Shown in pieces: positions 48 through 31,198 of a DNA stretch of 64,000 bases (position 1 is the first letter of the stretch; every line of letters begins with the position of its first letter). This stretch comes from an uncultured Chlorobiaceae bacterium (GTDB taxonomy: Bacteria; Bacteroidota; Ignavibacteria; UBA10030; SZUA-254). Made by a program: the position numbers and the translations under genes. Location: the NCBI GenBank assembly GCA_964512655.1, contig CAZEJT010000003.1, positions 183,719-247,718 on the forward strand, given 5' to 3'. The notes beneath the pieces were generated by a model. That model searched no databases and had not been told where the DNA came from. It saw only the letters and a program-made list of their open reading frames with translations.

Positions 48-3000
48 GTGAGGTTGTTACATAGTGTACAAGCGGCACTTCTCCTTCTAGCTTCCTCCGC
101 TCTAGCGCAAACTCCATCCAGCGTCACGTCAGGCATTCCGCCGGGGCAACAAGCGATTATTGCGCCTCAGCTGCCGGATGCCTCGGGCGCCGGCACCCTT
201 TTCGTGACGGGAAAATCCACACCAAACAATGTGACGGCGACCTATGCCCCCGGTACCACAGTCGTCACACTCTCGAAGGGCGACAGCGTCCTCCAAAGAT
301 TCGGGATTTCCCCCGACGACGAAGTCAAAGTGATCGTCGAGTTCAAGAACCTCCCGCTGAGCCTGGTCCACAGCGTCAGAGAAAAGCACCCCTCCGACCG
401 AATACAGTCCGCGCTCACGGCAGTGCGGCTCGATCACGATCAGTTCAAGGCCGACCTTCCCAGGATCGACCTTAATCCGCCCCCAAGGTCTCGGAGTACA
501 TTCACCGGACAGGTTTCGTCGATCCGGTACGAATACTCGACCGCCATTAACGGGGTTGCTCTTACCACTCACCGATGGGTTCTCGACGAAATCCGCAAGC
601 TTCCTTATGTAAGCGCCATCAGCGAGGATTTCCTCGTCCATGCGCTCGATGATTCGAGCAATACGCTGATCGGCGCTCCTACATACTGGAGCACGTACGG
701 TCTACACGGAGACAGCACGGAAATCGGGATCCTCGATACGGGGATCGATTACCTACACGAAGCGCTTGGGGGTGCCCCGTTCCCGAACACTAAAGTGATC
801 GGCGGATACGATATCATCAACAACGACAACGACCCGATGGACGATAACGGCCACGGGACTCACGTCGCTGGAATCGCCGCGGGCAACGGACCGGGGCCTA
901 CTAACCTGCGCGGGGTGGCCTTTGGGGCGCGTCTGTGGGCCTTCAAAGTCCTCGATCAGAACGGGCAGGGGTTTTCTTCCCAGATAATCGCCGGCATCAA
1001 CCTCGCCCTCGATCCCGACAGCAATCCGGCAACTCCTACACCCATCTCGGTGCTCAATCTCAGTATCGGCGGCTCCGGCAATCCTAATGACCCCGGATCC
1101 CGCGCCATCGATAACGCCGTCACGAGCGGTCTGGTGTGCGCCGTTGCCGCGGGAAATAGCGGGCCCGGCAATTATACCATCAACTCGCCCGGATGCGCCC
1201 GCAAAGCCCTTACTGTTGGCGCCTGCAGCGACCTCGATGTGATAGCCTCCTTTAGCTCCCGCGGGCCGGCAGGAACGACGTTTGCAATCAAGCCCGACGT
1301 GATTGCCCCGGGCGTAAATGTCTATTCCGCCAAGGTTGGCGGCGGATACTTCTACCTGAGCGGGACCTCGATGGCGACCCCTCATGTGGCGGGCGCAGCT
1401 GCGCTCCTTCGCGAGCTCCATCCCTCATGGAGTCCGGATGAAATCAAAGCCAATCTCATGGAGAGTGCTCACGATCTGGGGCTGAATTACTGGAATCAGG
1501 GTCACGGACGCATCAACGTCTTCGATGCGGCGAAGGAAAGCGTCGTCGTAGTCCCCGGATCCATCAGCAACGGTCTTGACGTCACCTCCCAGTCAACGTG
1601 GACGGTGAAGGATACGTTGACGGTATATAATTTCAAGAACATCCTCGAGAGCTTTAACATCTCGATGAAGAATTCGCCTCCGAGCGGGATTACATTCGCC
1701 TTTGACCTGCCGACGCTGGTCGTAAACGCGAATGATTCTGCGAAGGTTGTGTTGACTGCATCCGTTGACAACACGGTCTACCCATTCCCTGTGGGATATC
1801 CTCCCTCATATTTCAACACTCTCGTCGCAAAGTCGTCGATCACATCCGACAGCATAACGGTTCCCTTCGCGTTCATCAAGAGCCCGCTCCTGAATCTTTC
1901 GTTCGATACCGCACCAACGCTCGTCGACATTCATAACAATAGCGACACTCTCTTTTTTAATGCTGCGTTCACCAACCTCATTGGCCTCGGCTTGAGCGTC
2001 CTGGTGCCGGTCGATACATACGACGTCGAAACTTTTTTCTACTCGGATTCTCAGATGGTCGTGAAGGAGGGAGTCAGCGTCAACGGGAATACGACGGTTA
2101 CTATTCACTCAACGGATGCGGCGAACCTGATTACATTCCATTTGATCAATATCAATTCTCAGGAGATCACCACTGGCAGACTGGAGCTCGAATCGGTCGT
2201 GAGCACCAGATCCAAATTCGGCATCTCCTTCTTCGGCCAGAACGCGCATAAGAAGAGGTACATCTCGAACATCAGTTCCAACTATATCTACGAGATCTCA
2301 ACCATCCCCGACTTCTTCCTGGCAGGAAGCGCCGAGTATCTATTCCCCTTCGTGGTCAGCACAGGGATTTCCGGCCCTATCACGCTGCAGAACGACCCCA
2401 CGAAGTTTAAAACCATGAATTACCGCTGCGCTGTCCCGCCCGGTACGACCCGGCTGAATCTCACGACGATATTCTCCTCGGCAACCACCGGGCTCGGTAC
2501 GACTTCTCTCGGTATCATCTATCCGCCATATCAATTTAAAGGGTATTATGCCCCTCAGCCTATCGAGGAGAATTTCCCCTATCTGACACACTGGCTTGCG
2601 GCAGATCCCCAGAGCATACTGGCAAGCATGGTTCACAGAACCTCATACACCGCTGTTTCCCAGCCGGACACGATGAGGTTTTCGGTCGGACCCACCGGTT
2701 TCTATTTCGGATCCTCGCAGTTTGTCTCCACCAGGCCCTCGTACACCAGTCCCCTGGGACTTATCCCCCCGATGTGGGCGGGAAGGGTGATCGCCTATGG
2801 CACCGCAATTGACGTGCAGGTGGCAACCGACGCCTACATGCTCACCGGGCTCGGCGACCGTGTTGTCGGGCCGATAACCTACAAGACCTGGCTGAGTGGC
2901 ACTCCTGTCGATTCAGGACTCTTTCAGAATCTTCCGAGATATCATCTCGATACATTGCTGACTGTCGTTACCGGAGGAAATTTCAAATTTCAAACTGTCT

Positions 3001-4811
3001 TCGGCAATTACAGGGTCGGACCCCGGAACGGGACGGCTACCACCACACTCACCGGAAGTTCCCTCAACTCCCTTAATGTCTGCCCGAGATTCAGGAGTCT
3101 CCTCTTCCTCCATGATGGCAATTTGCCCGACTCGCTCCCCGTCAATCAGCTCCGGATTATCCCGACGGCCCCTGAGGTTGTCGACTCGGTAAGCGCGTGG
3201 TATCGAAAGTCGACCTCGTCGACGTGGCTTCCTCTTACCCTGAGCCAGAGCGATTCAATTTACACCACCCCATTGCCGGACACTCTCGGGGTCGGTTATT
3301 ACAGCACGCGGATACGGATCACCGATCTCGCATCGCAAACCATCGACTACGTGCTCGATCCCGGTTTCACCAGCCCCGGCACAATCCTCAACACCAATCC
3401 GCTGGTGTTCGATACCATACATGTGGGATGCAGGCAGACAAAAACCATCAGCGTTCAGAACCTTCGCCTCACGACCAATGCGGTGATCACGTCGATCGTT
3501 TCCGACGATACGACGTTCGTCCTCTCGTACGGCAACGCCACCATTGCGGGTTCTGAAAGTCTCTCCGTTCCCGTCACCTTCACCCCCGTCACGGCGGGAC
3601 TGCATGAGGCCCACATAATTTTCAACATCGTCGGCTTCGCCGGTCCTGAGACTGTCGCGGTTTCCGGAGTGGCTGGAAGCCCCGGAGGGGAGATTGAGAT
3701 CTCGGAGAACCTCGGCACGCACTGGCAGCTTATCTCCGTCCCGGTGGATGCAATCTGCCCATATCTGTTGCCTCCGCTGTACGCCTACCGCGGATCGTAT
3801 CTTATTCGCGATACGCTGAAATCAGGCGAAGGTTATTGGAAGAATGTCGTCGATCCGGTATTCACGTTTGTAGGGTTCCCTCGCACGATTGACACGATCC
3901 CCATGCTCCAGGGATGGAATCTCATCGGTTCGCTATCGACCCCGACGCCCGTCACGGTCCTCAACACCATTCCTGCCGGCCAGATTTCTTCGAGGGTCTT
4001 TGGCTATACTCAGGCGGGCTACTTTAAACCCGACAGCATCTCACCTACTCATGCATATTGGGTAAAGGTGAAAATCGCCTGTCAGCTGATTCTGCAAACG
4101 GGTGCCGCCTTCCCCGGAAAACCCGCAGCCTTGCCGATAGACCCCTACACCGCGGCCTCGCGCCTGACCGTCACGGACGCCCTGAGTAGAACCCGGGTTC
4201 TTTACTTCGGACCAAGATCCGATCTGCCGGGGAATGAAGGATTCTTTGAGTTGCCGCCGCCCCCGCCTGAGGGCTCCTTTGACGTGCGGTTCGGCTCAAA
4301 CAAAGAATGTGAGATCGTCCTAGATCACAAGGCCCAAAATTTCCCGATCCGCATAAGCTCGGCCGAGTATCCGGTCACGATCAGCTGGGATGTGAAATCG
4401 AGCACTCTCCTTGGCGTGCTGAGGGTAGGGACCGGAAGTATAGAGCTGAGCAAGAGCGGTTCCCTCACGATCCCGGCTGCAGCCGACACGGTAGCGCTGC
4501 GAATTACAGGTTCGGCTGCGCTTCCGAGAACATTCGCGCTCGATCAGAACTATCCCAATCCGTTCAATCCTCAGACGGTCATCCAGTACCAACTCCCCGT
4601 CGACAGCCGGGTTGAATTGAAGATCTATAACACCCTTGGCGAGCAGGTCGCAACCCTCATCGACGGCGAGCAGCCCGCCGGATACAAGTCGGTTACGTGG
4701 AACGGCGCCAATTTCGCGAGCGGCGTCTACTTCTGCCGTCTACACGCGGTAGGGGTAGCGGACGCGAAGAACAACTTTACACAGACGCGAAAGCTCGTAC
4801 TTATCAGATAG
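48..4811 (+). CDS. Subtilisin-like (S8) serine peptidase, 1587 aa, with T9SS type-A C-terminal sorting domain
   Basis: GTG start after a GGGGGG RBS-like run; signal peptide MRLLHSVQAALLLLASSALAQ. Catalytic triad motifs GILDTGIDY (Asp), HGTHVAG (His) and GTSMATPHVAG (Ser), with oxyanion AAGNSGP. About 1100 aa of extension without recognisable motifs. C-terminus [22 protein letters not shown]…GVYFCRL is a typical Por/T9SS CTD. Confidence 0.85.
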   Translation: MRLLHSVQAALLLLASSALAQTPSSVTSGIPPGQQAIIAPQLPDASGAGTLFVTGKSTPNNVTATYAPGTTVVTLSKGDSVLQRFGISPDDEVKVIVEFKNLPLSLVHSVREKHPSDRIQSALTAVRLDHDQFKADLPRIDLNPPPRSRSTFTGQVSSIRYEYSTAINGVALTTHRWVLDEIRKLPYVSAISEDFLVHALDDSSNTLIGAPTYWSTYGLHGDSTEIGILDTGIDYLHEALGGAPFPNTKVIGGYDIINNDNDPMDDNGHGTHVAGIAAGNGPGPTNLRGVAFGARLWAFKVLDQNGQGFSSQIIAGINLALDPDSNPATPTPISVLNLSIGGSGNPNDPGSRAIDNAVTSGLVCAVAAGNSGPGNYTINSPGCARKALTVGACSDLDVIASFSSRGPAGTTFAIKPDVIAPGVNVYSAKVGGGYFYLSGTSMATPHVAGAAALLRELHPSWSPDEIKANLMESAHDLGLNYWNQGHGRINVFDAAKESVVVVPGSISNGLDVTSQSTWTVKDTLTVYNFKNILESFNISMKNSPPSGITFAFDLPTLVVNANDSAKVVLTASVDNTVYPFPVGYPPSYFNTLVAKSSITSDSITVPFAFIKSPLLNLSFDTAPTLVDIHNNSDTLFFNAAFTNLIGLGLSVLVPVDTYDVETFFYSDSQMVVKEGVSVNGNTTVTIHSTDAANLITFHLININSQEITTGRLELESVVSTRSKFGISFFGQNAHKKRYISNISSNYIYEISTIPDFFLAGSAEYLFPFVVSTGISGPITLQNDPTKFKTMNYRCAVPPGTTRLNLTTIFSSATTGLGTTSLGIIYPPYQFKGYYAPQPIEENFPYLTHWLAADPQSILASMVHRTSYTAVSQPDTMRFSVGPTGFYFGSSQFVSTRPSYTSPLGLIPPMWAGRVIAYGTAIDVQVATDAYMLTGLGDRVVGPITYKTWLSGTPVDSGLFQNLPRYHLDTLLTVVTGGNFKFQTVFGNYRVGPRNGTATTTLTGSSLNSLNVCPRFRSLLFLHDGNLPDSLPVNQLRIIPTAPEVVDSVSAWYRKSTSSTWLPLTLSQSDSIYTTPLPDTLGVGYYSTRIRITDLASQTIDYVLDPGFTSPGTILNTNPLVFDTIHVGCRQTKTISVQNLRLTTNAVITSIVSDDTTFVLSYGNATIAGSESLSVPVTFTPVTAGLHEAHIIFNIVGFAGPETVAVSGVAGSPGGEIEISENLGTHWQLISVPVDAICPYLLPPLYAYRGSYLIRDTLKSGEGYWKNVVDPVFTFVGFPRTIDTIPMLQGWNLIGSLSTPTPVTVLNTIPAGQISSRVFGYTQAGYFKPDSISPTHAYWVKVKIACQLILQTGAAFPGKPAALPIDPYTAASRLTVTDALSRTRVLYFGPRSDLPGNEGFFELPPPPPEGSFDVRFGSNKECEIVLDHKAQNFPIRISSAEYPVTISWDVKSSTLLGVLRVGTGSIELSKSGSLTIPAAADTVALRITGSAALPRTFALDQNYPNPFNPQTVIQYQLPVDSRVELKIYNTLGEQVATLIDGEQPAGYKSVTWNGANFASGVYFCRLHAVGVADAKNNFTQTRKLVLIR

Positions 4812-6781: not shown

Positions 6782-7972
6782 GTGCGCTTTTCCCGCCGCA
6801 CCGGGTGGCCGCGGCGGCCCAACAAGCTGGCCGCCCTCCTTGAAGAGCGACGCAAGAGCGGCAAACCGGTTTACGATCTCACAGTTTCAAACCCAACCGA
6901 GGTCGGGATAGGTTATCCGGAAATCGACCTTGCCGCTTCCCTTTCCGATCCAAGAGTCCTTCGCTACGAGCCCGACCCGCGCGGCCTCCTGAGCGCCCGC
7001 GAAACAATCTCCGAGTACTACGATTCTACCTGGAATATCACCGCGGATCCATCATCGATCTTCCTCACCTCAAGCACAAGCGAGGCGTATTCGATACTTT
7101 TCAAGCTCCTCTGTGATCCGGGAGAGGAGATTCTCATTCCCCGGCCTACCTACCCTCTTTTTGACTCCCTGGCACGTCTTAGCGATGTGACGCTTGGCGG
7201 ATATCGTCTCGAGTACGATGATGTGTGGCGAGTCGATCTTGACTCTGTGGAGGCCGCGATCGGGAAATCGACACGGGCTGTTGTCATCGTCAATCCCCAC
7301 AACCCCACCGGCATGTTCCTGAAACAGGATGAGTACCGCGCGATCAAAGAGATGTGCGCGCAGCATTCGATCCCGATTATCACGGATGAAGTTTTTTTGG
7401 AGTTTCCGCTTCACGGCGGGAACTCCCGGATTTCAACGGCGGGTGAACAGGATATCCTGTCGTTCACTCTAAACGGAATTTCGAAGATGGCCGGACTCCC
7501 CCAGCTTAAATTGGGATGGATCGTCGTGGGAGGTCCGCCGGCCGATCGTACAGAAGCCGCGGGCCGGCTTGAGATCGTTTCCGATACATTTCTCTCCGTG
7601 AACACTCCCGTTCAGATCGCGCTTCCGGAGATCATGGAGGCGGGCGACAATATCCGTGAGAACCTGCTCGCCCGGCTCAGGTCCAACTATGGCGCCATGC
7701 TCGCCGAGGTTCCATCAGGATCCGCTTGTTCTGTTCTCCAGTGTGAGGGAGGATGGTATGGGATTATCCGGGTGCCGAACGTGAAATCGGACGAGGAGTG
7801 GGCGGTGCTGCTCCTCGAGGAGACTGGTTTCTACCTGTTCCCTGGTTATTTCTTCGATTTCGAGACGGAGGGCTATCTGGTGGTGAGTCTACTCGTGAAG
7901 GAGGAGGTTTTTCGCAAGGGCATAACGGCACTTGTTGATTGCGTCGAATCGATGGACCCCGACACTGCATGA
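6782..7972 (+). CDS. PLP-dependent aminotransferase, class I/II fold
   Basis: N-terminal FSRRTG…LDLT.SNPT motif and VIVNPHNPTG core. GTG start 2 nt after the typA stop; no in-frame ATG before the conserved N-terminus. Confidence 0.8.
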   Translation: MRFSRRTGWPRRPNKLAALLEERRKSGKPVYDLTVSNPTEVGIGYPEIDLAASLSDPRVLRYEPDPRGLLSARETISEYYDSTWNITADPSSIFLTSSTSEAYSILFKLLCDPGEEILIPRPTYPLFDSLARLSDVTLGGYRLEYDDVWRVDLDSVEAAIGKSTRAVVIVNPHNPTGMFLKQDEYRAIKEMCAQHSIPIITDEVFLEFPLHGGNSRISTAGEQDILSFTLNGISKMAGLPQLKLGWIVVGGPPADRTEAAGRLEIVSDTFLSVNTPVQIALPEIMEAGDNIRENLLARLRSNYGAMLAEVPSGSACSVLQCEGGWYGIIRVPNVKSDEEWAVLLLEETGFYLFPGYFFDFETEGYLVVSLLVKEEVFRKGITALVDCVESMDPDTA

Positions 7973-8065
7973 AGCTTTGATCTTACTTGCTCATCCGAAC
8001 GCAGCTCAATACGGGCAATCTTGGTTAGAATCAATCCCCGCCATAGAACGGGGGATGAGTGGTAC

Positions 8066-8836
8066 TCAGATGGCCAGAGGGATCCTTGACCCCAGAGTGG
8101 TCATCAGCTCTTGAGACTGTCGTCGGGTGGGTTGGGGCATGCCGTCGTATTGTCTCCCATCCAAAATGCGTCCTGTGGCTTTCTTTCTGACTCCGCCCCA
8201 CTGCTTAAAGAAGAATGCCACTTCCTCCCTTTCACAGGAGGCTTTGATCTCCCTCACCCATTCCGATTTCATCTCGCGAGCACCGGGTCCTGATTCCCCC
8301 CCTACTATTACCCAATCGATGCCGGCCAGCGGCACATTCGGCAAAGGAGCGAGAAGTGGCTCCAATGAGAGGAACCTCACAGCGGCCGGAACGAGGAGGA
8401 GGTCACGAATCCGGGAGAAATACTTTGGCGTTTCCACGCTCACGCCCATCCAAATGTTTGTTGGCCATGGCAGGATGCCGGCAAGCTCGGCCAGCCTGCC
8501 AGAACGTTTGGTCAAAACTTGAAATGTGTGCCAATGCGCCTGTTGCATCATGGAAAAAACCTGAACCAGAAAGCCGATCGGAATATCCTCATGGAAAAGG
8601 TCGCTCATCGAATTGACAAAGATTTGCCTTGGTCTCCGCCAAGTAAGAGGCACGTTGATCAAGTCCGGATGAAGTGTGATGCCGAATCCGTTACGATAAC
8701 GGGGGGAGCCCATCGCCTGCAAGCGCTTCGCCAGCCTCTCGGCATAACAGTGTTTGCACCCCGGGCTAATCTTATCGCAACCCGTTACGGGATTCCACGA
8801 CGCTTCAGTCCATTCTATCGATGATGGGCCAGCCAT
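8066..8836 (-). CDS. Phage Gp37/Gp68 family protein (DUF5131)
   Basis: N-terminus [27 protein letters not shown] matches the hallmark IEWTD.TWNP.TGC…C..CYA motif of PF07505/DUF5131. Local GC looks lower than in neighbouring genes. Confidence 0.7.
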
Positions 8837-9141
8837 TTGTGATTGTTATGAAAAATTGAATGCATCCTGGTTCGAGCTGCCTCGCAAAGCCTTGTCCCAA
8901 AAATCAATCCCGCGGTCATGTTGAGAAAATGGAGAGATAGTTGCTCAGCAACCGATACTTTTCAAGCGCATACTCACCGGTTTCGATGATCCTGAGACCA
9001 TCTTCCTTCCATTCCAGCATCTGACCCTCCTCCCGAAGGTACGACATATTTGTCGTGAAGTCAAGGATAATGCGACAAAATCGTTACCCTCCGATTTGTC
9101 ATATCAATCACATTACTTGAATGAAGGCTCTCCGCTGCACT

Positions 9142-9846
9142 CTATTTCCCCATCGCCTCGTTCAGAAACCTGATCAGCGGTAGAAGCCCCCTGTACACGT
9201 CGACGACATTGCCAACCATCTTCGATGAGTAACAGCTCTTCTCTTCCCATTCTACCCCAGAAAAGAACTGCTTGTACTTGAGCCATTCGATCATCGGGTG
9301 GTCTGCCGAATAGCCGAGCGGATTCCGTTTCAGCTTTTCCCCCTCCAGCCCGCCGAATCTCTTCTTGAAAGATTTATCTTCCATGATAGACCGGAACTTG
9401 GTCTGATGATCTGAGATCGCGCCGCGGATCTTCTTAAGCTGGTTGCTGTCTGGCATATAGATCCCCCCGCCCAGAAATACCTGCCCGGGCTCGATGTGAA
9501 GATAATACCCCGCGCTCCCCTGCCAGTTGCCTCGAAGATGGAAGACCGCCGCAACGTGCGTCTTGTAGGGCGCTTTGTTGTTGCTGAAGCGGATATCCCG
9601 GTAGATCCTGAAGAGGCTCCGCCTCGGGTGGACGTCAAACTCCGGAGCGATCTCCGACATGGGCTCCCTGAGCGAGGCGATAAGCGATTGCATCGGGAAT
9701 TTCACGAACTCCTCGTACTCGGGTTTGTGCCTGGTGAACCATTCCCTGTTGTTATTCTTCTTGAGCTGCTTCAGAAACCTGATCCCCTCCTTCGGAAAAC
9801 CTCCGAACGGCGGGTACATTTCCGCATCGAGAATCACGCTCTTCAT
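9142..9846 (-). CDS. DUF2461 (TIGR02453) family protein
   Basis: FRIYRDIRFSNNKAPYKTH motif and a length around 230 aa are typical for this family. Confidence 0.6.
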   Translation of the reverse strand: MKSVILDAEMYPPFGGFPKEGIRFLKQLKKNNNREWFTRHKPEYEEFVKFPMQSLIASLREPMSEIAPEFDVHPRRSLFRIYRDIRFSNNKAPYKTHVAAVFHLRGNWQGSAGYYLHIEPGQVFLGGGIYMPDSNQLKKIRGAISDHQTKFRSIMEDKSFKKRFGGLEGEKLKRNPLGYSADHPMIEWLKYKQFFSGVEWEEKSCYSSKMVGNVVDVYRGLLPLIRFLNEAMGK

Positions 9847-9849
9847 GTG

Positions 9850-10833
9850 CTAGCCTCTTCTTCTTGATTTGAGATGATCGCTGCGCCCATCGATGTCTCT
9901 GATGGCTACGCCTACAAAGCCCTCCGCCAACTTAAGACGTGCTGCGGCACGACGCGCTGACAGACCAAGCTTCACCATGACGATCGCGGTCTTGACGTGT
10001 CCGCCGGCCTGGCGCAGTTTCGTTGAAGCATCTTTATATCCGATCCCTGTCGTCATCATCAGGACGCGTTTCGCCCGCTCTTCAAGCTTCCGGCTGTTCA
10101 GCTTCAGGTCCACCATCATATTGCCGAGCACCTTTCCCAATCGTACCATCGACGCGGTGGTGATCATGTTCAGCACAAGTTTCTGGGCAGTCCCGGCTTT
10201 CATCCTCGTCGAACCCATTACCACTTCAGGACCTACCACGGGGCATATGGCGACATCGACACTCTTTTGTAGTGCAGCGAACTCCGGCCTTCCAAGCGCT
10301 GATCTTGAATTTGTTGTCACGAGCAAAGTAGCGGCTCCGCGGCGCTTGGCTTCTCGAAGCGCGCCAATTACATACGGTGTCCTCATGCTGGCAGCGATTC
10401 CACAGACAACATCTTTCTTGCCTGCCTTCATCCGGATGATATCCGACTTTCCGCTCGCCTCAAGGTCTTCAGATCCCTCTATTGCTCTGAAAACAGCGCT
10501 TTTCCCTCCCGCAATGAGACCCTGGACCATCTTTGGATCGGTGCCATAGGTTGGCGGGCATTCTGCGGCATCCAGGATCCCGAGTCGCCCGCTTGTTCCC
10601 GCTCCTACGTAAATTAGCCGGCCGCCTGACTTGAATGAGCGCACAACAACCTCGACTGCTCTTGCGATATCCGGGAGCTCACGCTTCACGGCAGCTGGCA
10701 CCATTGCATCTTCTCGAGCGATCGACTGGAGGATCCCCCGGATGTCTCTGCTGTCGAGATCACGCGTCCTCGGATTGGACTTCTCAGTTATCAGGGTTTG
10801 AAGCTGGTTGAAAAGGCGTTTGTCGTTATTCAT
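9850..10833 (-). CDS. murQ: N-acetylmuramic acid 6-phosphate etherase
   Basis: SIS-domain protein. GRLIYVGAGTSGRLGILDAAECPPTYG and TGSTRMKAGTAQKLVLNM are closely colinear with E. coli MurQ. Confidence 0.9.
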   Translation of the reverse strand: MNNDKRLFNQLQTLITEKSNPRTRDLDSRDIRGILQSIAREDAMVPAAVKRELPDIARAVEVVVRSFKSGGRLIYVGAGTSGRLGILDAAECPPTYGTDPKMVQGLIAGGKSAVFRAIEGSEDLEASGKSDIIRMKAGKKDVVCGIAASMRTPYVIGALREAKRRGAATLLVTTNSRSALGRPEFAALQKSVDVAICPVVGPEVVMGSTRMKAGTAQKLVLNMITTASMVRLGKVLGNMMVDLKLNSRKLEERAKRVLMMTTGIGYKDASTKLRQAGGHVKTAIVMVKLGLSARRAAARLKLAEGFVGVAIRDIDGRSDHLKSRRRG

Positions 10834-14956: not shown

Positions 14957-15160
14957 TGAATTGGATAGGGAGACTGGCCTCTGAATTTAGGAAACTAGGC
15001 CAAAAGAAACAACGAGCTGTCCATGAACTTTCCTTCGGTTGTGCATGAGCCGGGAGTTGGGTAGATTTAGTGAAGAGGTATCTGACTGCCAGGGGGCGGC
15101 CGGGGGCCGGCGATCGTTTTGGATCACCGCACGGAACTACCTCCAGGGCTCAGAGAATTC

Positions 15161-15670
15161 ATGCGCGTGTTGGCGAGCATATCGGTGTGCTTTTTCTTGT
15201 TGGGATGCAGCGAGGAAGAAACATTCGTCCAATACCCCAGACCCAACATCGAGCTCAACGGCAGCGCCTCGCCTGTAACAGGAAGTGCGCTGACCCCGGT
15301 CACGGTTAGGGTGAGCGTCGTAAACAGTGGGAACCTTCGCAGGATATGCTATTCCGGTTGCGGTTATCTGACCCCCGGAATTACCTATCACCTTTATGAT
15401 CCCTACTTCAGGGAGGTCTATCTCTCCAATCCGCTGACCCGGCCCTATTGCGCGGACTTTGTTGAGCATTTCTATCCGAGCAAGACATTCGAGGGCACCT
15501 TCATAATCGACGGAACAATCTTTACCGCACAGGGAGATTCATCGGCTATGAAGCCTGGCACGTACTCCGTCATCATTGAGTTCACTTCCTGGGCCGAGGA
15601 AAACCCTTCCGGGGCAAGCGTCCTCGTAGAACAGAAGCTGCTCACGGTGGGTTGGAAATCGACGAAATGA
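15161..15670 (+). CDS. Paralogous lipoprotein family member 1 (possible BsuPI-like beta-sandwich; candidate protease-associated protein)
   Basis: ATG at the MRVL… signal with lipobox FLLGC. Conserved blocks RICYSGCGYL, YDPYF, PGTYSVIIEFTSWAEENPS and KLLTVGWK are shared with two paralogs. A conserved 45-bp leader lies upstream. Confidence 0.7.
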   Translation: MRVLASISVCFFLLGCSEEETFVQYPRPNIELNGSASPVTGSALTPVTVRVSVVNSGNLRRICYSGCGYLTPGITYHLYDPYFREVYLSNPLTRPYCADFVEHFYPSKTFEGTFIIDGTIFTAQGDSSAMKPGTYSVIIEFTSWAEENPSGASVLVEQKLLTVGWKSTK

Positions 15671-15761
15671 TCTGGGCTAAGGAGTGGAATACTCCGAGGA
15701 GGTAGCAATGGCAGCAACAACAGTATCGAGTGGAGTCATCGCAAGATTGAGCGTAGGTATC

Positions 15762-16271
15762 ATGCGGGTGGCGATGAGCATATCATTGTGCTTCTTGTTG
15801 TTGGGGTGCAATCAGGACGTGTTAACCGTTCCACCCGATACACTCGGCATCGAGCTCACTGTCACTCGTTCACCCACAGTGGGCAGCGTCACCAGCCCGG
15901 TGACCATCACGGCGCGCGTGAACAACCGGGGTGTATCGACGCGGATTTGTTTTTCAGGTTGCGACTATCTGATCACCGGGATAGCCTTTCGTATCTATGA
16001 TCCCTACTTCCAAGAGGTTTTTCTCTACAACCCGACGACGTGGCCGCATTGTGCAAACTATCGTGTGTCGTTCCATCCGGGTGAGAAAATCCAGGGTGCG
16101 TTCACATTCGACGGAACGCTCTATGATGTCCGTGGAGATACGCTTACGATGGGCGGGGGTACTTACACCGTCCTCATCGAATTCACTTCCTGGGCGGAGG
16201 AGAATCCATCCGATACAAATCGGCTCGACGTTGAGAAGCTGATTACATTTGACTGGAAAACGGGGGGATAA
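15762..16271 (+). CDS. Paralogous lipoprotein family member 2 (tandem copy)
   Basis: MRVAMSISLCFLLLGC lipobox, with RICFSGCDYLITG, YDPYFQEVFLYNP, GGTYTVLIEFTSWAEENPS and KLITFDWKTGG. About 70% identical to copy 3 and about 45% to copy 1. Confidence 0.75.
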   Translation: MRVAMSISLCFLLLGCNQDVLTVPPDTLGIELTVTRSPTVGSVTSPVTITARVNNRGVSTRICFSGCDYLITGIAFRIYDPYFQEVFLYNPTTWPHCANYRVSFHPGEKIQGAFTFDGTLYDVRGDTLTMGGGTYTVLIEFTSWAEENPSDTNRLDVEKLITFDWKTGG

Positions 16272-16314
16272 TCCGGGGACACCTTCAATTGGCTTCATTC
16301 CCTCGAATGAAAAA

Positions 16315-16341
16315 GTCCCAACCGGCGCGTCCGGTTGGGAC
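16315..16341. terminator. Bidirectional hairpin terminator between lipoprotein copy 2 and the convergent ECF sigma gene
   Basis: 11-bp perfect stem gtcccaaccgg / ccggttgggac with a cgcgt loop, and AAAAA on the + side (a T-run for the minus-strand gene). The same element recurs after copy 3. Confidence 0.6.
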
Positions 16342-16351
16342 TTACTACAAT

Positions 16352-17233
16352 TTACTGGAGGACGGCCAGATCGATTCTGTTAAGCCGGGTGGGGTCAGCA
16401 ACAACCTCGAGTTTGACTACCTTTCCGTTTGCGATCGTGAATTCAAGAACAACCTGCAAATCACCTCTCGGGGCGACGATAATTCCCACGGCGCCATTCA
16501 CTAGTCCAATTTGACCAAACCGGGCGCGCCCGGAGAAAGCGACAGCTACCTTCGCCACGCTTTCCGCGCCACGGATCTCCGTTGCCAACCCGGAGGGTGA
16601 TGCGCTGGCATCGGCCCTCAGTTCGACATCGGGATCAAGAACCGCTATCAAGCCCGCAACATTTCCTTCACGTGCAGCTTCAAGAAAGGCATTCACCGCT
16701 TTTTGTTGGTCTTCAATTTCACCCGACGATGTCTTGGGAGTACCCTGGACGCGGCGTCGCGCACGACTGGCAAGCTGGCGCGTTGCAGTCGTTGAACGTT
16801 GCACGATAGGCGCGATGGCATCGAAAGGGTACTCAAAAACATCATGCAGCACGAATGCGACACGCTCTGCGGGCGTCAGAGTCTTCAGGACGACGAGCAG
16901 GGCAAGACCTACCGACTCCGCCAATGCCGATTCAGCCTCAGGATTCATCGACGTGTATGAAGGCATGGTCCTATCGAACTCGTGAAACTCGAGCGATTCT
17001 TCCCGGCGTGATTTCCGAGCACGGAGCATGTCCAGGCAGATGCGCGCGGTGACGGTTGTCAGCCATCCCTCCAGGTTCTCGACTCTGTTTATGTCGGCAT
17101 TTCTCAACCGTATCCACGCCTCCTGAACGGCATCCTCCGCTTCGGGTAACGAGCCAAGAATCCGGTACGCGATTGCCCGCAGACGGGGCCTCTGGCTCTC
17201 AAATCTCTCGACCAACGACTCTTCTCTCTTCAT
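16352..17233 (-). CDS. ECF-type RNA polymerase sigma factor with C-terminal extension (ECF41/SigJ-like)
   Basis: Region 2 AVQEAWIRL and region 4 TARICLDMLRARK are present. About 290 aa, with a ~100-aa C-terminal (SnoaL-like) extension typical of ECF41-type sigma factors. Confidence 0.8.
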   Translation of the reverse strand: MKREESLVERFESQRPRLRAIAYRILGSLPEAEDAVQEAWIRLRNADINRVENLEGWLTTVTARICLDMLRARKSRREESLEFHEFDRTMPSYTSMNPEAESALAESVGLALLVVLKTLTPAERVAFVLHDVFEYPFDAIAPIVQRSTTATRQLASRARRRVQGTPKTSSGEIEDQQKAVNAFLEAAREGNVAGLIAVLDPDVELRADASASPSGLATEIRGAESVAKVAVAFSGRARFGQIGLVNGAVGIIVAPRGDLQVVLEFTIANGKVVKLEVVADPTRLNRIDLAVLQ

Positions 17234-17303
17234 CCGTCACATTTTCTCGTCCTGCCGCGTCATTCAGTTATGGTACAATAATGACGAATCTAAACCAATT
17301 GAT

Positions 17304-17993
17304 GTGACAAGGAATATGGACACCGCCCGTACTTCACTTATTAATGATCAACGAGACCCGCACAATATTTTGGTGATCGGGGCCAATGGCGGAATCGGAA
17401 GGCAGGTTGTGGAGATGGCCCTGAAGGAGGGTTTCAAGGTGACGGCGCTTCTTCGGACACCATCCAACCTGGGCCTTCGGCACGACAACCTTGAGATAGT
17501 GCAGGGTGACGTCATGCGCCCTGAAACCATCGAACCACATTTTGCCGGGAAGGATGTTGTAATTTCTGCCATCGGAAAGGATTCCCTGAAGCAGACCACT
17601 CTCTATTCCCAAGGCGTAAGGAATGTGATCGCCGCAATGAAGAATGCGCGGACACAGCGGGGCTTCTTCATCTCGGCCTCAGGACTGGAGGTGAATCCCT
17701 CCCACTCATGGGCGGTCCGATCCCTCACCAAATATGTTTTGCAGAATCTGCTGAAGAACATGTACGATGATCTTCGTAGAATGGAAACCCTCATAAAGGT
17801 TAGTGCCGTGAATTGGACAATTGTTCGTCCACCGCGGCTCCTCAACAAGCCGTCTGTGGGAAAATACCGGGTTGCCGTCGACAGATTCTTGCAGCATTGC
17901 CTTACAATTTCGCGAGCCGACGTAGCTCATTACATCATTCACAACTTGAAAAATGAGTTCACGTATCGAACAACTGTTGAAATTGCCTATTAG
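17304..17993 (+). CDS. NAD(P)H-binding SDR/NmrA-like oxidoreductase
   Basis: Rossmann motif ILVIGANGGIGRQVV and about 220 aa. The start is uncertain (GTG at 17304 or ATG at 17316). It is divergent from the ECF sigma gene, a common ECF41 neighbourhood. Confidence 0.7.
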   Translation: MTRNMDTARTSLINDQRDPHNILVIGANGGIGRQVVEMALKEGFKVTALLRTPSNLGLRHDNLEIVQGDVMRPETIEPHFAGKDVVISAIGKDSLKQTTLYSQGVRNVIAAMKNARTQRGFFISASGLEVNPSHSWAVRSLTKYVLQNLLKNMYDDLRRMETLIKVSAVNWTIVRPPRLLNKPSVGKYRVAVDRFLQHCLTISRADVAHYIIHNLKNEFTYRTTVEIAY

Positions 17994-18285
17994 ACCCAGG
18001 CCCCCCATACACGCCGCCACAGGTTCATGACGCGATCTGCCTCCCGAATCGTGATCCAGTTGGGATTCTTGAATATCCCGTCATCCTGAAGCCTGCTCCC
18101 GCTAAACTATATGCCCCAACAAGCGTACACAAGTTGGGACTATCTGTAGTACATATAGTCTAGGCCCTCATACCAGTGCGGGATAAGGAGGGATATCCGG
18201 GAACCTCCTTGCCTGAATCCTTCCCGGTACGGATTTTGCAGTATCGCCCGCGGTTACAATTACTCGATCTGAATTCTGAAGTAGG

Positions 18286-21200
18286 GTGTACAGAATCATG
18301 AGGAGGTTTCTCGAACTTCTTGTCTTGATCATCACACCGACGATCCTTCTCGCCGGTGGATATCCGTCGTCTGGTGATTCCACCCGCCGGGCACTGATGT
18401 CCATGGACAGCGCGAGGAGGGCAGAGGAACAGAGGCTCGGAGCGCTGCAGAAGGTAATCGTTGAGTTCAACGACGAGCCAATGTTCCTGGCCCGTAGGGA
18501 GCCGCATCCTCCTTTCAAGGCGAGATCGTCGGATTCCTACCTGGCACGCTTTTCACAATTCGGCGCCGATGCAGCTGCTATCACAAGGACATTTCGCTCC
18601 GCAACATCGGATCGCGTAGGAATCCGTCATCGGTACTACAAGGCGTTCTTCGGCGTCAGTGCCACGGTCCCCGGCAGGATATTACCGGCGCTCAGGCGCC
18701 TTGCGTACGTTAGGGGAGTCTATCCCGATGGTGAGGTGCACGCGACAATCGAGCCGGCGATCGAACTAATTGGCGCCCCGGCCGTCTGGGGGACACTCGG
18801 GACGCAGGGTGATAGTGTCCGCGTCGGAATCATCGATTCGGGGATCGATTATCTTCACCCGGCACTTGGCGGAGGGTTTGGACCCGGTTTTAAGGTCGCC
18901 GGGGGATACGATTTTGTGAATAATGACAAGGATCCGGCGGATGACAACGGGCATGGGACGCATGTCGCAGGCATTATCGCAGCGGACGCCGACACTGTAA
19001 AGGGGGTCGCTCCCCACTCGATTTTGTACGCTTACAAGGCTCTCAATGCGGCGGGGAGCGGCGCCGTAAGTGATATCATCGCTTCGATCGAACGCACCGT
19101 CGATCCGGATCAGAACGGGGATGACTCCGACAGGCTCGACATTGTGAACATGAGTATCGGGGGCCCCGGTGGGCCCGATGATCCGGGAAGCGTTGCAGTC
19201 GACAATGCGGTGCGGCTCGGGGTCACATTCTGTATCGCTGCGGGAAACACGGGGCACAAGATCCCAGTTCAAGGAAAGGAGAATAATTACTTTTATGATG
19301 GCTCCGAAACCATCAACAGCCCCGGGACGGCGGAGCTTGCAATCACCGTTGGGGCGTCTGACCTTTCGGATAACCTGGCCTTCTTCTCATCCCGTGGGCC
19401 GAACACAACGTCGTTCAGCATCAAGCCGGACGTTCTCGCGCCGGGAGTCGACATCAACTCGACGTATCCGCCTGCCGGGTTCAAGGTCCTGAGCGGCACG
19501 TCCATGGCCACCCCGATGGTTGCCGGAGTCGCTGCATTAATCAAGGGTGTCCACCGCTCCTGGACTCCGGCCATGATCAAGTCCGCGATCGTGAACAAAG
19601 CCAGAAATATCGGCCTCAACGCCTACCTGCAGGGGGGAGGGAGAGTACGGGCGATACAATCAGTATCAGCTAAGACGCTCGTTACCCCTTCCGCGTTGAG
19701 CTACGGATTGGACGACCCCGCAGCAGCCCCATGGTCGTTGCCTGAAACATTGCGCGTCTACAACACTCATTCATCGTCGCAGTCGTATGCAATCGATGTC
19801 GGGGGAATTGCATCCGGCATCTCGCTGAACGTGTCTCCTTCGAGTTTTTCCATCCCCGCACAAGACTCGGCCATGGTGATTGCCACCCTTACGGTGGATA
19901 ATGCGTTTGTGGCCATTGCTGATGAGGATATTCTCCGTTTTACCGGGCGCGTGATATTGAGCGGCACTGCCGATACCGCCGTTGTTCCATGGGCATTCGT
20001 GCGGACCAGCAGGCTGGTCATCACCACGAGCGAGCCGGATCCCTTTTTTATCGGCTACACAAATACCTTCGGCTTTATCAGCAACATGCAGAGGGTGAAC
20101 CGGACCAGTCCGACCCGAGCCGTGGTGTACGCTCCTGTCAAGGGCGCTTACGAGTTTTTCACCGTCTTCCGGAGTCCTGACGTGCCGCCCAGAATCGTCA
20201 TCAACGAAGGGGTTCCTGTCGTCACCGATGCTTCCGAGGTCTTCCTCGATGCGGCTCAAGCCGTCAATCCGCTGATCTTTCAGGGCGTTGATCAAGATGG
20301 TGCTTCTCTGGCGACGTACCGCGCACCACAGCACGCCGTTATTACTTCGCTCCCCAATTTCGGTGACTGGAACACTACGTTTTCCGGAGCCTCCGACACC
20401 GTGCTGATCTCCGGCGCGTCCGCGAGCCATTCCTTCAAACCGGTCGAACTCCAGATCGATCTTATGAAGACCATGACCTTCCACGTCGTGCAGTTCGAGA
20501 GATTCACGGGCATGACCGGCGCCAGGTTGGCGGTCAATTCTCCCGCGGATTTCATTCAAGAGCATTTCAAGGTCAAAGTTCCTCCCGGGACTATGTCGGC
20601 TGCGCAATTCACTACAATCTGGTCATACACCGACTTCGGGGGAATGGGGGGCTTCTCCGGGATTGGTGCCGATCTGGACACTCTCTCGGTGAACGGAGAT
20701 GAATATGCGTTCACAGGATATTTCGGAAAATCTCCCAGCCTCACGGAGGACGTGGCTCTAAAATTCTACTCGAGCTATTCCAATGTTCCGGCCCTTTCTC
20801 TCGACTATGAGTCGCCGTTTATCATGCCATACGGGGACAGTGTCGTGGTCACGGCGAGGGAGTTGGTCGACCCCGCTGTCCCCCGCTTCAAGAGCGGAGG
20901 GACGTTGACGTTCGGAGGGGCGCCGGCCCACCTGCTGATGGTGTGGAACAACAATATTATTGGGACGAACACGCTGTTCTTTCGGCCGATCTTTGAGGGA
21001 ATGCTCCGCGAGATCCGGTATCGTGATATCGTGGCCGGAACGTATAGCGTCTTTGACAAGAACGGCACGGAGCTCTTCACAAAACCCCTCGCTGAGCCGA
21101 GCCCTCCGCTTGAACTTACCGCAGACACCTATAAGGTCGTGGCGACATCGAGCAACTACTGGCTTCGCAGCATCCGGGGAACCCAGACACTCTCATCGGA

Positions 21201-21900
21201 ATTCAATCTCGGCGCCGGATTGGCGGCGAACCCTCAGAGCATTACATCGTTCATGCTTCTCGATTCGAATAATCAAACTACTGACACCTTCGTGAAAAAC
21301 GAGCCGGGGACTCTGCGCTTTTCTGTGAACGTGCTGAGCGATACAAACCATGTTCCACTGGCTGATTCCACCAAATCTTGGTACCGAAAGCACGGAACGG
21401 AACCGTGGATACCCCTTGCCCTGACGGAGATTGCGAAAGTGGCTGAAAGGGAGGGGAGAATCCTACAGGCGGATATCAGGGCGGCGACAGGGGAGGACTC
21501 GGTCGCGATTGATCTGAGGGTGGCGTCGAAGGGTATCAACGGATTTACAGTGGAGCAGATTGTTGCGCCCGCCTTCGCCGTTGGGAAATGGGATACACTT
21601 GTGACGGACGTGAAAACTCCCTCGCCACAGCTCCCGCTGCGATTCGCCCTCGAACAGAATTATCCGAATCCGTTCAATCCTTCAACGGTGATAAACTACG
21701 AAATCCCATCACGCGGCCGCGCGGTGATGAAGGTGTACGATGTGCTCGGCCGTGAAATGGTAACTCTGGTCGACCAGGAACAGGAGGCCGGCAGTCACAC
21801 TGTTTCCTGGAATGCATCCTCGATGCCGAGCGGCGTGTATTTCTATCGGCTTCAGATGCGCTCGAATATCGCTGCAAAGAAGCTGTTGCTACTCAGGTAG
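18286..21900 (+). CDS. Subtilisin-like (S8) serine peptidase, 1204 aa, with T9SS C-terminal sorting domain (paralog of 48..4811)
   Basis: Signal peptide, then a propeptide-like N-region. GIIDSGIDY (Asp), HGTHVAG (His) and [11 protein letters not shown] (Ser). [25 protein letters not shown]…GVYFYRL. Confidence 0.85.
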
Positions 21901-21914
21901 GTTGATGCGGCGTT

Positions 21915-22493
21915 CTATAGAATCTGGTAGACGCGGTATTCTACCTTCCCCGGAATGGACTTATACACCCCCACCGCTATGACCTTGTTGAGCCAGGCGT
22001 ATTTTTCTGCTCCGGCCTCGAACATAGGTACGATGCGGGCGAACAGCTCCCCACCCGGATCTTTGTAGGCGATCCCGCGACAGGTCATTAGAATCTTCTG
22101 GTCATCATCGGTCTGCAAAACAAACCGAATGTCGAGGGAGCTTGTGCCATCGGGACGCACCACCATCCAGTCACCGCTTGGATTTACTACAGTACCCTTT
22201 AGTCGCGGACCCTCAAAAGTTCCACCGGAGACGGCAACAACTACCCGCTTCACACCCGGGGATCCAACGTTATTTGATGGCCCCCTTTCGAACACTAGGT
22301 CCATGAGAAACTGTGAGTGAAGCCGGTCTCCGGCTTGTGTGTCCGCCGGCGATGCAACCTGGTGGAGTTTCGAGCCAGTGAGGGTGTCGCCCGGGGCCGT
22401 GCCGCGGGAGCGATTGCTGCCGAACGATGTTGCCAGCGCGAAAACAACGAGGTAAGCGGTGTTGTTGATTCTCATTAGATAACGCCGAATCAT
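21915..22493 (-). CDS. DUF3237 family secreted protein
   Basis: ATG at 22493 with an AAAGGCAAAGGAACCC RBS region; signal peptide MIRRYLMRINNTAYLVVFALA. Conserved VSGGTFEGPRLKGTV…GDW…RPDG…LDIRF…TDD pattern. The longer tracked ORF (to 22685) reads through the paralog leader and is unlikely to be real. Confidence 0.65.
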   Translation of the reverse strand: MIRRYLMRINNTAYLVVFALATSFGSNRSRGTAPGDTLTGSKLHQVASPADTQAGDRLHSQFLMDLVFERGPSNNVGSPGVKRVVVAVSGGTFEGPRLKGTVVNPSGDWMVVRPDGTSSLDIRFVLQTDDDQKILMTCRGIAYKDPGGELFARIVPMFEAGAEKYAWLNKVIAVGVYKSIPGKVEYRVYQIL

Positions 22494-22635
22494 GGGTTCC
22501 TTTGCCTTTTTGTTGTGCAGATTAACAGATAATACGCGAACTGAGATGTACAACAATGAAACAGCACTAATCGGTTCAGTGGTTGTGCATGAGGCGGGAG
22601 TTGGGTAGATTGAGTGAAGAGGGCTCGGAGAATCT

Positions 22636-23139
22636 ATGCGCGTGTTGACGAGCATAACGGTGTGCTTTTTCTTGTTGGGATGCAATCATGACGTGCTAGT
22701 CGTTCCATCCCAGCTACTTGGCATCGAGGTCGCTGTCACACCCTCACCTTCGGTTGGCAGCCTCACCAGCCCGGTGACCGTGACGGCGAGCGTGAAAAAC
22801 CGCGGTATTTTCACGCGGCTCTGTTATTCAGGTTGCGACTATCTGATCACCGGGATAGACTTTCGTATCTACGATCCATACTTCCAGGAGGTTTTTCTCT
22901 ATGATCCGAGGACGCGGCCGCTTTGTGCAGACTTTACTGTTTTGTTCCATCCGGGTGAGAACATCCAGGGTGCGTTCACGATCGACGGGACACTCTACGA
23001 TGCTCGTGGCGATACGGTAAAGATGGGCCGGGGTACGTACAGCATCCTCATCGAATTCACTTCCTGGGCGGAGGATCATTCCGAGGTAAGTCGGCTCGTA
23101 GTCGAGAAGCTGATTACGTTTGACTGGAAGACGGGGTGA
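22636..23139 (+). CDS. Paralogous lipoprotein family member 3 (distal copy)
   Basis: MRVLTSITVCFFLLGC lipobox, with RLCYSGCDYLITG, YDPYFQEVFLYDP, GTYSILIEFTSWAEDH and KLITFDWKTG. Same leader and terminator as copies 1 and 2. Confidence 0.75.
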   Translation: MRVLTSITVCFFLLGCNHDVLVVPSQLLGIEVAVTPSPSVGSLTSPVTVTASVKNRGIFTRLCYSGCDYLITGIDFRIYDPYFQEVFLYDPRTRPLCADFTVLFHPGENIQGAFTIDGTLYDARGDTVKMGRGTYSILIEFTSWAEDHSEVSRLVVEKLITFDWKTG

Positions 23140-23196
23140 TAATCCGGAACAACTCGGAGACACCTTCAACTGGCCTTCATTCCCTCTAATGAAAAA

Positions 23197-23231
23197 GTCC
23201 CACCTGGCGCGGCCGGTTGGGACTTTCTGCG
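23197..23231 (+). terminator. Rho-independent terminator after lipoprotein copy 3
   Basis: gtcccacctggcgcggccggttgggac stem-loop followed by TTTCTGCG. Paralogous to the 16315-16341 hairpin. Confidence 0.55.
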
Positions 23232-23367
23232 AATGAGACCTGATAGACCCGATTATGGCCTTTCCCCTGCATCAATTGAAACTCTCCGACCCGTAATTCA
23301 TTTGACTTTCTCCAAAAGGTTGTGTAGGGTAATGTAATTGGTGTCCATTACCCACTCGAGGTGGCTT

Positions 23368-30703: not shown

Positions 30704-30869
30704 CCGGAACGTCTTGATGTGGGTCTTGGCCGCAGGGCTGAGGAAGGGCTTTCTGCGTTTTTGTTCCTCTCGCCGCTTGGGCGATGGACGATTCCGCTGA
30801 CTCGTAGGACCTCCGTGGGCTGAAGGAGTAACTTACTTATTGGAACTTCCATTTTCAACAAAATTTCTC

Positions 30870-30898
30870 TTGACGTGAACTCCAAAACTTTGTATTAT
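30870..30898 (+). promoter_or_regulatory. Candidate sigma70-type promoter upstream of dnaA
   Basis: TTGACG, 17 nt, then TATTAT with a TG immediately 5' of the -10 (extended -10). Oriented toward dnaA. Confidence 0.4.
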
Positions 30899-30936
30899 AA
30901 CTCAAGGTTGGAGGCTTCAAGCTCCTGTCGACAACG

Positions 30937-30945
30937 TGTGGATAA
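30937..30945 (-). promoter_or_regulatory. Perfect consensus DnaA box (TTATCCACA, reverse orientation)
   Basis: tgtggataa is an exact match. A second near-box tgttgataa (one mismatch) lies at 31132-31140. Confidence 0.55.
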
Positions 30946-31198
30946 CTGTTAATGAGCATTCCTGCCTCGCTCTGCAGTTGCCCGCGGAGATCTCTCAACG
31001 AAGGATATTGCACCATTAAGTCCTGTAGAATCAAGCTCTCGGGGGCACTTTCGTCTTTCGTCGGCCGTATACTTTCCACCATACCCGTCGTATCGCGCAC
31101 CCTCCCCGCCGGGAGAATTTGTTCACATGATTGTTGATAAACTGTAGACAACGGTTCAAATCGTTGTAATCCATTTCGTCTTATGAGGTTACAAAGTA

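Follow-up and report, generated by a model that had tools for sequence, protein, structure and literature searches.

A DUF5131 gene beside the remnant of its TcmP partner, probably the surviving half of a two-gene cassette, in an uncultured Chlorobiaceae bacterium

How does a gene of the DUF5131 family (phage Gp37/Gp68) come to stand alone among housekeeping genes, when the family is commonly encoded as a pair with the three-Cys-motif partner TcmP? The question is raised by a 64-kb stretch of contig CAZEJT010000003.1 from an uncultured Chlorobiaceae bacterium (the window, by which we mean the whole stretch of 64,000 nucleotides analysed), which carries one such gene between an aminotransferase gene and a DUF2461 gene. 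The initial annotation took this gene for a horizontally acquired single-gene insertion in a pocket of low guanine-plus-cytosine (GC) content, with non-coding flanks and no TcmP partner. Our analyses point to another history: the upstream flank holds the remains of a TcmP gene, and the DUF5131 gene is probably the surviving half of an ancestral TcmP-DUF5131 cassette, whose product would now act without TcmP.

The TcmP remnant and its 5' element

The product of the window gene is matched end to end by PF07505/DUF5131 (E 7.6e-97; 324 bits against a Pfam gathering threshold of 28.9 bits; profile positions 2-243 of 243), in agreement with the earlier assignment of a 256-residue protein with a Cys-X6-Cys-X2-Cys motif (C20, C27 and C30). 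It also matches phrog_2045 and the PADLOC B components PDC-M41B (377 bits) and PDC-M30B (364 bits). The model TIGR04471 (radical SAM mobile pair protein A), previously proposed as its family, describes a separate one, since the protein scores 55.8 bits vs. a cutoff of 355 and the similarity is distant only (E 4e-15, over residues 15-212). Another open reading frame (ORF) of 256 codons, at 21915-22685, was considered as a second DUF5131 copy and was identified as DUF3237.

The 305 bp upstream of the gene (8837-9141) had been described as non-coding, a description that does not survive comparison with relatives: the flank contains a TcmP remnant (Table 1). Scans of the small upstream ORFs of the window with PADLOC and NCBIfam hidden Markov models (HMMs) gave no match, and the homology surfaced only via a longer stub at a related locus, L004, and a custom TcmP HMM that we built from 38 full-length partners. 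L004 and L005 carry the two closest homologues of the window protein (76% and 78% by BLASTP), and the small ORFs upstream of DUF5131 are homologous among L004 (97 residues), the window (43 residues) and L005 (30 residues). The TcmP HMM aligned to the L004 stub over profile positions 4-56 (35 bits, E 8.8e-9), taking in motif I (VYVDLYSGPG vs. YiDaFAGtG), and TIGR04474 and PDC-M41A were the sole matches of this stub. By BLASTP its first 48 residues match the N-termini of full TcmPs with 54% identity (E 1e-13), and its last ~30 residues align to the extreme C-termini of TcmPs at L008 (274-302) and L087 (259-285) with an E of 0.002, with four further TcmPs aligning at the same C-terminal place (E 0.05-0.65). 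Because the two ends of the stub match the two ends of TcmP, the L004 ORF represents a TcmP that has lost ~200 internal codons by an in-frame deletion.

The window retains less of the same gene. Its stub aligns in register to profile positions 3-32 (10.8 bits), and the piece at 8846-8920 matches the end of the L004 stub at 71% identity. In the DNA alignment the deletions are nested, with both ends common to the window and L004 and a further 83 bp missing from the window; the frameshift in the window results from the loss of those 83 bp, which are present in L004. In L005 a larger deletion reaches the DUF5131 start. The mini-ORF stops 1 nt ahead of the DUF5131 ATG in both L004 (TAAcATG) and L005 (TGAaATG), and this coupling to the DUF5131 start is broken in the window. 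The custom HMM detected no intact TcmP in the 64-kb window, so the statement that the gene has no TcmP partner was right for an intact copy and overlooked the stub. A 19-nt inverted repeat (17/19 complementary; 8838-8856 and 9094-9112) encloses nearly all of the upstream intergenic region with the stub. Its right arm, which touches the DUF5131 start, shows partial conservation in L004, its left arm is window-specific, and the repeat may have arisen by chance.

Conservation in this flank is concentrated at the start of the former cassette. Among the window, L004 and L005, identity is 79-85% over the 47 nt ahead of the stub ATG and 77-78% over the first 65 nt of the stub ORF, and it falls to 37-61% farther upstream, with few aligned columns for the pairs that involve L005. 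Since this conservation coexists with saturated synonymous sites in the flanking genes (proportion of synonymous differences, pS, ~0.75), the 5' element and the stub start are constrained and not a neutral relic. Over the first 30 codons of the stub the proportion of nonsynonymous differences (pN) is 0.17 and pS 0.46, on only 18 synonymous sites. The element may act as a promoter, operator or leader. A similar TTGACA and palindrome lie ~40 nt upstream of the intact TcmP of another locus, L006, and were absent from the 67 other cassettes examined; with L006 alone among 68 TcmP upstream regions, the palindrome is ruled out as a general cassette feature. A search of 7900-9300 against Rfam gave no match, and the RNA fold of the upstream region was unremarkable (z-score 0.24), with no structural signal.

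Retention of the gene among relatives

The orthologous loci were obtained via exact-protein look-ups; scans of genome and metagenome contigs with the window protein revealed no relative above 70% identity. In L005 the gene order is mnmE-mnmG-rsmG-murQ-DUF2461-(30-residue ORF)-DUF5131-aminotransferase, and in L004 it is DUF2461-MFS-M1 peptidase-(97-residue ORF)-DUF5131, that is, the same slot with two extra genes. The next homologue is that of L006 (67%, Ignavibacteriae), where a 289-residue upstream gene overlaps the DUF5131 start and is a TcmP (TIGR04474 140 bits, PDC-M41A 393 bits). Global alignments gave DUF5131 identities of 0.76, 0.74 and 0.82 among the window, L004 and L005, where the matching species identities are 0.72, 0.72 and 0.79 and the flanking genes have identities of 0.78-0.82 (DUF2461), 0.74-0.81 (murQ) and 0.76 (mnmG). 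Throughout, DUF5131 pN is ~0.10-0.15 vs. a pS of 0.50-0.77 (~0.15 vs. ~0.75 for the window against its orthologues); for L004 vs. L005, a pair that is not saturated, dN/dS is 0.13. On these comparisons DUF5131 is under purifying selection, in the same way as the partnered copies and at the rate of its housekeeping neighbours.

The residues tell a similar story. Across 98 partnered homologues, 95 columns reach at least 90% conservation; the window protein retains 94 of them, and the three orphans (window, L004 and L005) differ at just three columns, once each and always by conservative changes. The window protein thus appears to retain the residues conserved in the family, with no hint of a functional shift. 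Because these residues and purifying selection have outlasted TcmP, DUF5131 would have an activity or value without it, which constrains models of the pair. The opposite view, that the gene is a non-functional relic still free of disabling mutations, draws on the loss of the partner and on the dispensability of the gene in two sister lineages. We find it scarcely credible, as synonymous sites are saturated against a pN of ~0.15, the ORF is intact in three lineages and all but one of the conserved columns are unchanged.

What occupies the slot varies between lineages. A CLC channel gene lies there in L174, the closest relative (0.84 identity across rsmG, murQ and DUF2461), an FG-GAP gene and an MFS gene in L176, an MFS gene in L178 and a SocA_Panacea gene in the outgroup L179. 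Because the slot content differs between relatives, the DUF5131 gene is best described, on present comparisons, as an accessory gene of a variable chromosomal slot that was acquired at some point. DUF5131 is gone from the slot in the sister lineages L174 and L176, and the neighbour-joining tree, ((window,L174),(L005,(L004,L176))) with L179 as outgroup, makes one gain and two losses the simplest history. L174 has an orphan DUF5131 of another type (68% identical to that of the window), located at 3660-4460 between yidC and mnmE; the 430-bp gap upstream of it holds no trace of TcmP.

Was the acquisition recent, as a single DUF5131 gene in a small low-GC island? The changing slot content would be compatible with such an event, and homologues 59-72% identical across many phyla indicate that the family moves horizontally. 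The composition of the gene argues otherwise, as its GC (0.546 vs. a mean of 0.556±0.028 for 47 window genes), its GC at third codon positions (GC3; 0.611 vs. 0.673±0.068) and its codon-usage distance (0.40, typical at its length) all lie inside the normal range of the window. The neighbouring genes, previously given as 60% GC, are at 0.52-0.57. The gene is without compositional anomaly; low values are confined to the intergenic flanks (0.45 and 0.49), and other intergenic regions of the window span 0.40-0.65. Moreover, L004 and L005, ~72% identical to the window in flanking housekeeping proteins, share slot, stub and gene, with a divergence equal to that of the flanking core genes and with saturated synonymous sites, and the TcmP remnant implies arrival as a pair. 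Recent acquisition of a lone gene is therefore very improbable. From the original proposal of a single-gene insertion, horizontal acquisition at some point stands, and its single-gene nature and recency give way to an old cassette of two. The initial annotation had itself listed uniform GC and codon usage and a position conserved across the lineage as contrary evidence; the first was found, and the second holds for L004 and L005 and fails in the two sister lineages that have lost the gene.

A different route to the same distribution would be that homologous recombination spread stub and DUF5131 among Ignavibacteria-like lineages. Such exchange could use the conserved flanking genes, and the distribution on the tree is patchy, with the gene present in the window, L004 and L005 and absent in the sisters L174 and L176. 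However, DUF5131 identities track species distances, so any transfer would be about as old as the split itself, and we regard this route as decidedly unlikely. Vertical retention of a decayed cassette is the history that we prefer. Its proposed course is that the two-gene cassette entered the slot between DUF2461 and the aminotransferase gene in an Ignavibacteria-like lineage. TcmP then lost its internal codons before the sampled lineages split, as the deletion ends common to the window and L004 indicate. The further deletion in the window reduced it to an N-terminal stub of 34 codons and a C-terminal scrap that is out of frame, with the cassette 5' element and the first ~22 codons of the stub staying conserved. 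DUF5131 remained intact under purifying selection, with later losses in the L174 and L176 lineages.

Partnered and solitary DUF5131, and their possible activity

To place the window gene within its family, 129 classifiable DUF5131 loci from genome and metagenome scans can be compared. A full TcmP adjoins DUF5131 in 98 of them, nearly always directly upstream on the same strand and usually abutting or overlapping the DUF5131 start, which bears out the earlier statement that the two are commonly paired. The partner is partial or fragmented in 14 loci (11%), among them L083 with a fusion of N- and C-terminal parts like that of L004, and no partner was found within 1 kb or more in 17 loci (13%). 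Standing alone is therefore a recurrent, common state of the family. DUF5131 homologues were also found in 179 phage records, mostly of Mycobacterium and Gordonia phages, and TcmP was not found within 2.5 kb in three of four phage loci checked, all three being more distant DUF5131 copies. The fourth is Gordonia phage Easley (L181 2492-4359), in which DUF5131 (gp38, 57% identical) is convergent with a TcmP-family gene, gp39, annotated as 'methyltransferase'. These two genes lie between a tyrosine integrase and an immunity repressor; the integrase-repressor interval is the usual site of prophage-carried defence or moron genes. In the Mycobacterium phage prophiGD11-3 (L183 323-4614), a distant DUF5131 annotated as 'RNA methyltransferase' lies in a neighbourhood of DNA-modification type, with a DNA adenine methylase on one side and a PAPS-reductase-like protein on the other. 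The window gene shares the full-length match, the three-Cys motif and the conserved residues of the PF07505 family and differs from its phage members in being chromosomal, in a housekeeping neighbourhood and outside any prophage; its protein is closest (59-78%) to chromosomal copies of many phyla, with phage copies at ≤57%.

The abundance of pairs raises the question of whether the window DUF5131 still operates as one of two components, its TcmP partner being encoded at another place in the genome. In keeping with this, all family-conserved residues are kept, with a functional shift not evident, and the second DUF5131 of L174 at another site indicates multiple copies in the lineage. On the other side, no TcmP lies in the window or near the L174 copy, and the adjacency seen in 98 of the 129 loci suggests a unit linked in cis. 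We consider a partner in trans quite unlikely.

If DUF5131 does act without TcmP, what might it do? One published listing (PMC9477430) counts DUF5131 among the subgroups of the radical S-adenosylmethionine (SAM) superfamily and puts it in one megacluster with spore photoproduct lyase. C20, C27 and C30 are all invariant in an alignment of 42 DUF5131 sequences, in which a fourth invariant Cys is C201. In the AlphaFold (AF2) model of the protein (pLDDT 71, pTM 0.75), residues ~70-210 form a confidently predicted beta/alpha barrel core, and the Cys loop is of low confidence. Solved radical SAM enzymes (lipoyl synthase 8trw/4u0p, PylB 3t7v, viperin 5vsl, spore photoproduct lyase 4fhc) have a partial beta/alpha barrel with an N-terminal Cys triad ahead of it, an arrangement that DUF5131 may share. 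Sequence searches of the PDB, run with either the protein or the 42-sequence profile, found no meaningful relative. A TcmP profile from 25 loci weakly matched the 23S rRNA m6A methyltransferase RlmJ (E 0.0024, with motif I and a DP-Y motif aligned) and also, weakly, the RlmJ homologue 2oo3 ('catabolism of external DNA'), which suggests that TcmP has an N6-adenine-methyltransferase-like fold. With regard to the pair as a whole, PDC-M41 and PDC-M30 are predicted candidate systems identified through 'guilt-by-embedding' within BREX, DISARM and type I restriction-modification loci. The window locus has the B component of this cassette and upstream DNA derived from TcmP, and it differs in having the stub and scrap in place of an intact A component of ~260-370 residues.

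We therefore propose the following mechanism. C20, C27 and C30 would bind a [4Fe-4S] cluster on a partial TIM barrel of radical SAM type, and DUF5131 would carry out SAM-dependent radical chemistry on a nucleic-acid substrate. It would do so without TcmP, by analogy with an orphan modification enzyme, and the surviving 5' element and mini-ORF probably continue to drive both transcription and translation of the gene. Orphan DNA methyltransferases persist once the cognate restriction enzyme is lost, and the analogy would lie in the selection of one enzyme of a two-gene mobile modification or defence module after the decay of its partner; the difference is that here the methyltransferase-like, RlmJ-like partner TcmP is the lost half. 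A stronger version, which we hold to be unlikely, is that DUF5131 has been domesticated as a stand-alone, nucleic-acid-directed radical enzyme, and that ~22-30 N-terminal codons of TcmP with the 5' element have been exapted as a leader mini-ORF, which would deliver ribosomes to a DUF5131 start that has no Shine-Dalgarno (SD) sequence.

Several points weigh against the retention of DUF5131 as a TcmP-independent radical enzyme. The Cys spacing is CX6CX2C and not the CX3CX2C canonical for radical SAM proteins, and PF04055 was not matched, a Pfam scan of the protein giving PF07505 alone. A tentative alternative, somewhat unlikely in our estimation, is that DUF5131 is not a radical SAM protein and that its three Cys, possibly with C201, give a TIM-barrel enzyme a structural site for Fe-S or zinc; candidate chemistries would be a hydrolase, glycosylase or aldolase-like activity on nucleic acid. 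The literature searched contained no experimental or functional study of DUF5131, TcmP, PDC-M41/M30 or Gp37/Gp68, and PDC-M41/M30 stand as candidate systems only. As to expression, a sigma-70 consensus scan of 7800-9400 called no promoter, the 5' element included; the -10-like hexamer of this element is too near the SD-like GGGAGGAG for both to work as such, and the DNA alignment contains no compensatory change in the palindrome. The search for TcmP covered the 64 kb, and a TcmP may lie elsewhere in the genome; the overall pattern could also be obtained via recombination between relatives. Lastly, the slot is without DUF5131 in L174, the closest relative, and in L176, so the gene is dispensable.

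DUF5131 is a known, uncharacterised family, and the window gene is an ordinary accessory member in a common state; what the locus contributes is evidence that DUF5131 has been kept by selection in the absence of TcmP. The locus and its relatives form a natural deletion series, in which a methyltransferase-like partner was destroyed long ago and the three-Cys enzyme was kept, and a seemingly empty upstream flank is the remnant of a gene with a conserved 5' element. The TcmP-DUF5131 pair is widespread, with homologues at least 59% identical in many phyla. Were the enzyme indeed domesticated, the catalytic half of a widespread candidate defence pair would have a TcmP-independent cellular activity.

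Chromosomal setting

Table 1. Coordinates of the features at and around the DUF5131 locus (positions in the window)
Feature	Position	Strand	Basis or remark
Class I/II aminotransferase, conserved right border of the variable slot	6782..7972	(+)	Pfam; follows the slot in L005, L174, L176 and L179
Terminator-like hairpin directly past the DUF5131 stop	8036..8053	(-)	Consensus scan alone; weak T tail
Intact DUF5131 (phage Gp37/Gp68 family) gene	8066..8836	(-)	Single ORF, 256 residues
Three-Cys motif codons, C20-X6-C27-X2-C30	8747..8779	(-)	Sequence reading
TcmP C-terminal remnant, out of frame, HDRGIDFWDKALRGSSNQDAFNFS*	8846..8920	(-)	Deletions part this piece from the N-terminal stub
TcmP N-terminal remnant, 34-codon ORF MLEWKEDGLRIIETGEYALEKYRLLSNYLSIFST*	8916..9020	(-)	Gene callers start at 9047, giving 43 residues
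Conserved 5' element of the former cassette	9021..9066	(-)	Identity among the window, L004 and L005
SD-like GGGAGGAG	9027-9034		Within the 5' element
TACCTT	9036-9041		Within the 5' element
16-nt palindrome ACGACAAATATGTCGT	9041-9056		Within the 5' element, inside N17
TTGACT	9059-9064		Within the 5' element
DUF2461, at the end of the mnmE-mnmG-rsmG-murQ-DUF2461 block; conserved left border of the variable slot	9142..9846	(-)	Pfam and NCBIfam
murQ	9850..10833	(-)	Then rsmG, mnmG and mnmE

The setting of the gene is as first described in most respects. Gene calls with Pfam and NCBIfam support the housekeeping neighbours (the aminotransferase, DUF2461 and murQ), and the flanks, estimated earlier at ~300 and ~95 bp, measure 305 bp upstream and 93 bp downstream (7973-8065). 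The absence of a phage context was confirmed, as no phage or mobility gene was found around DUF5131 and the neighbours examined (typA, aminotransferase, DUF2461, murQ, rsmG, mnmG and mnmE) are all housekeeping genes. Synteny on the DUF2461 side was seen in L004, L005, L174, L176, L178 and L179. There is no tRNA near DUF5131; the sole tRNA call of the window, 30 kb off, is an ARAGORN tRNA-Ser(TGA) of 93 nt at 38725-38817 (-). It lies within the gyrA coding sequence (38324-40927 (+), PF00521 E 6e-174) and is probably a false positive.

Accessory or defence-type genes seem to accumulate at the borders of the conserved mnmE-DUF2461 block. In L179, the gene in the DUF2461-aminotransferase slot (6956-7465) encodes a SocA_Panacea domain, which is associated with toxin-antitoxin systems, and a PLD/SNF2 helicase gene lies upstream of mnmE. 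In L174, an N6_N4 methyltransferase and a BglII-type endonuclease are encoded at 1-723, beside rnpA. Across the block lies a second variable slot (window 15119-24702 vs. L174 3517-4890): the window has ~9.8 kb between mnmE and yidC, and the L174 interval holds the orphan DUF5131 only. The window interval contains two ORFs with no Pfam match, a sigma-70 family protein resembling the extracytoplasmic function type, an NAD(P)H-binding protein, a 1204-residue S8 peptidase with a type IX secretion tail, the DUF3237 gene, a 167-residue ORF and a Por_Secre_tail protein.

Elsewhere in the window, very large S8 subtilases with C-terminal sorting domains of type IX secretion are encoded at two places, 48-4811 (+) and 18286-21900 (+). 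These domains, taken with the source names of DUF2461 and DUF5131 homologues, indicate an organism of the Ignavibacteria/FCB group, and the Ignavibacteria-like assignment used above is based on them. The true compositional outlier of the window is a 125-residue ORF at 30855-31232 (-) that has no Pfam match, with a GC of 0.474, a GC3 of 0.468 and a codon-usage distance of 0.71; this ORF may be spurious or of foreign origin.
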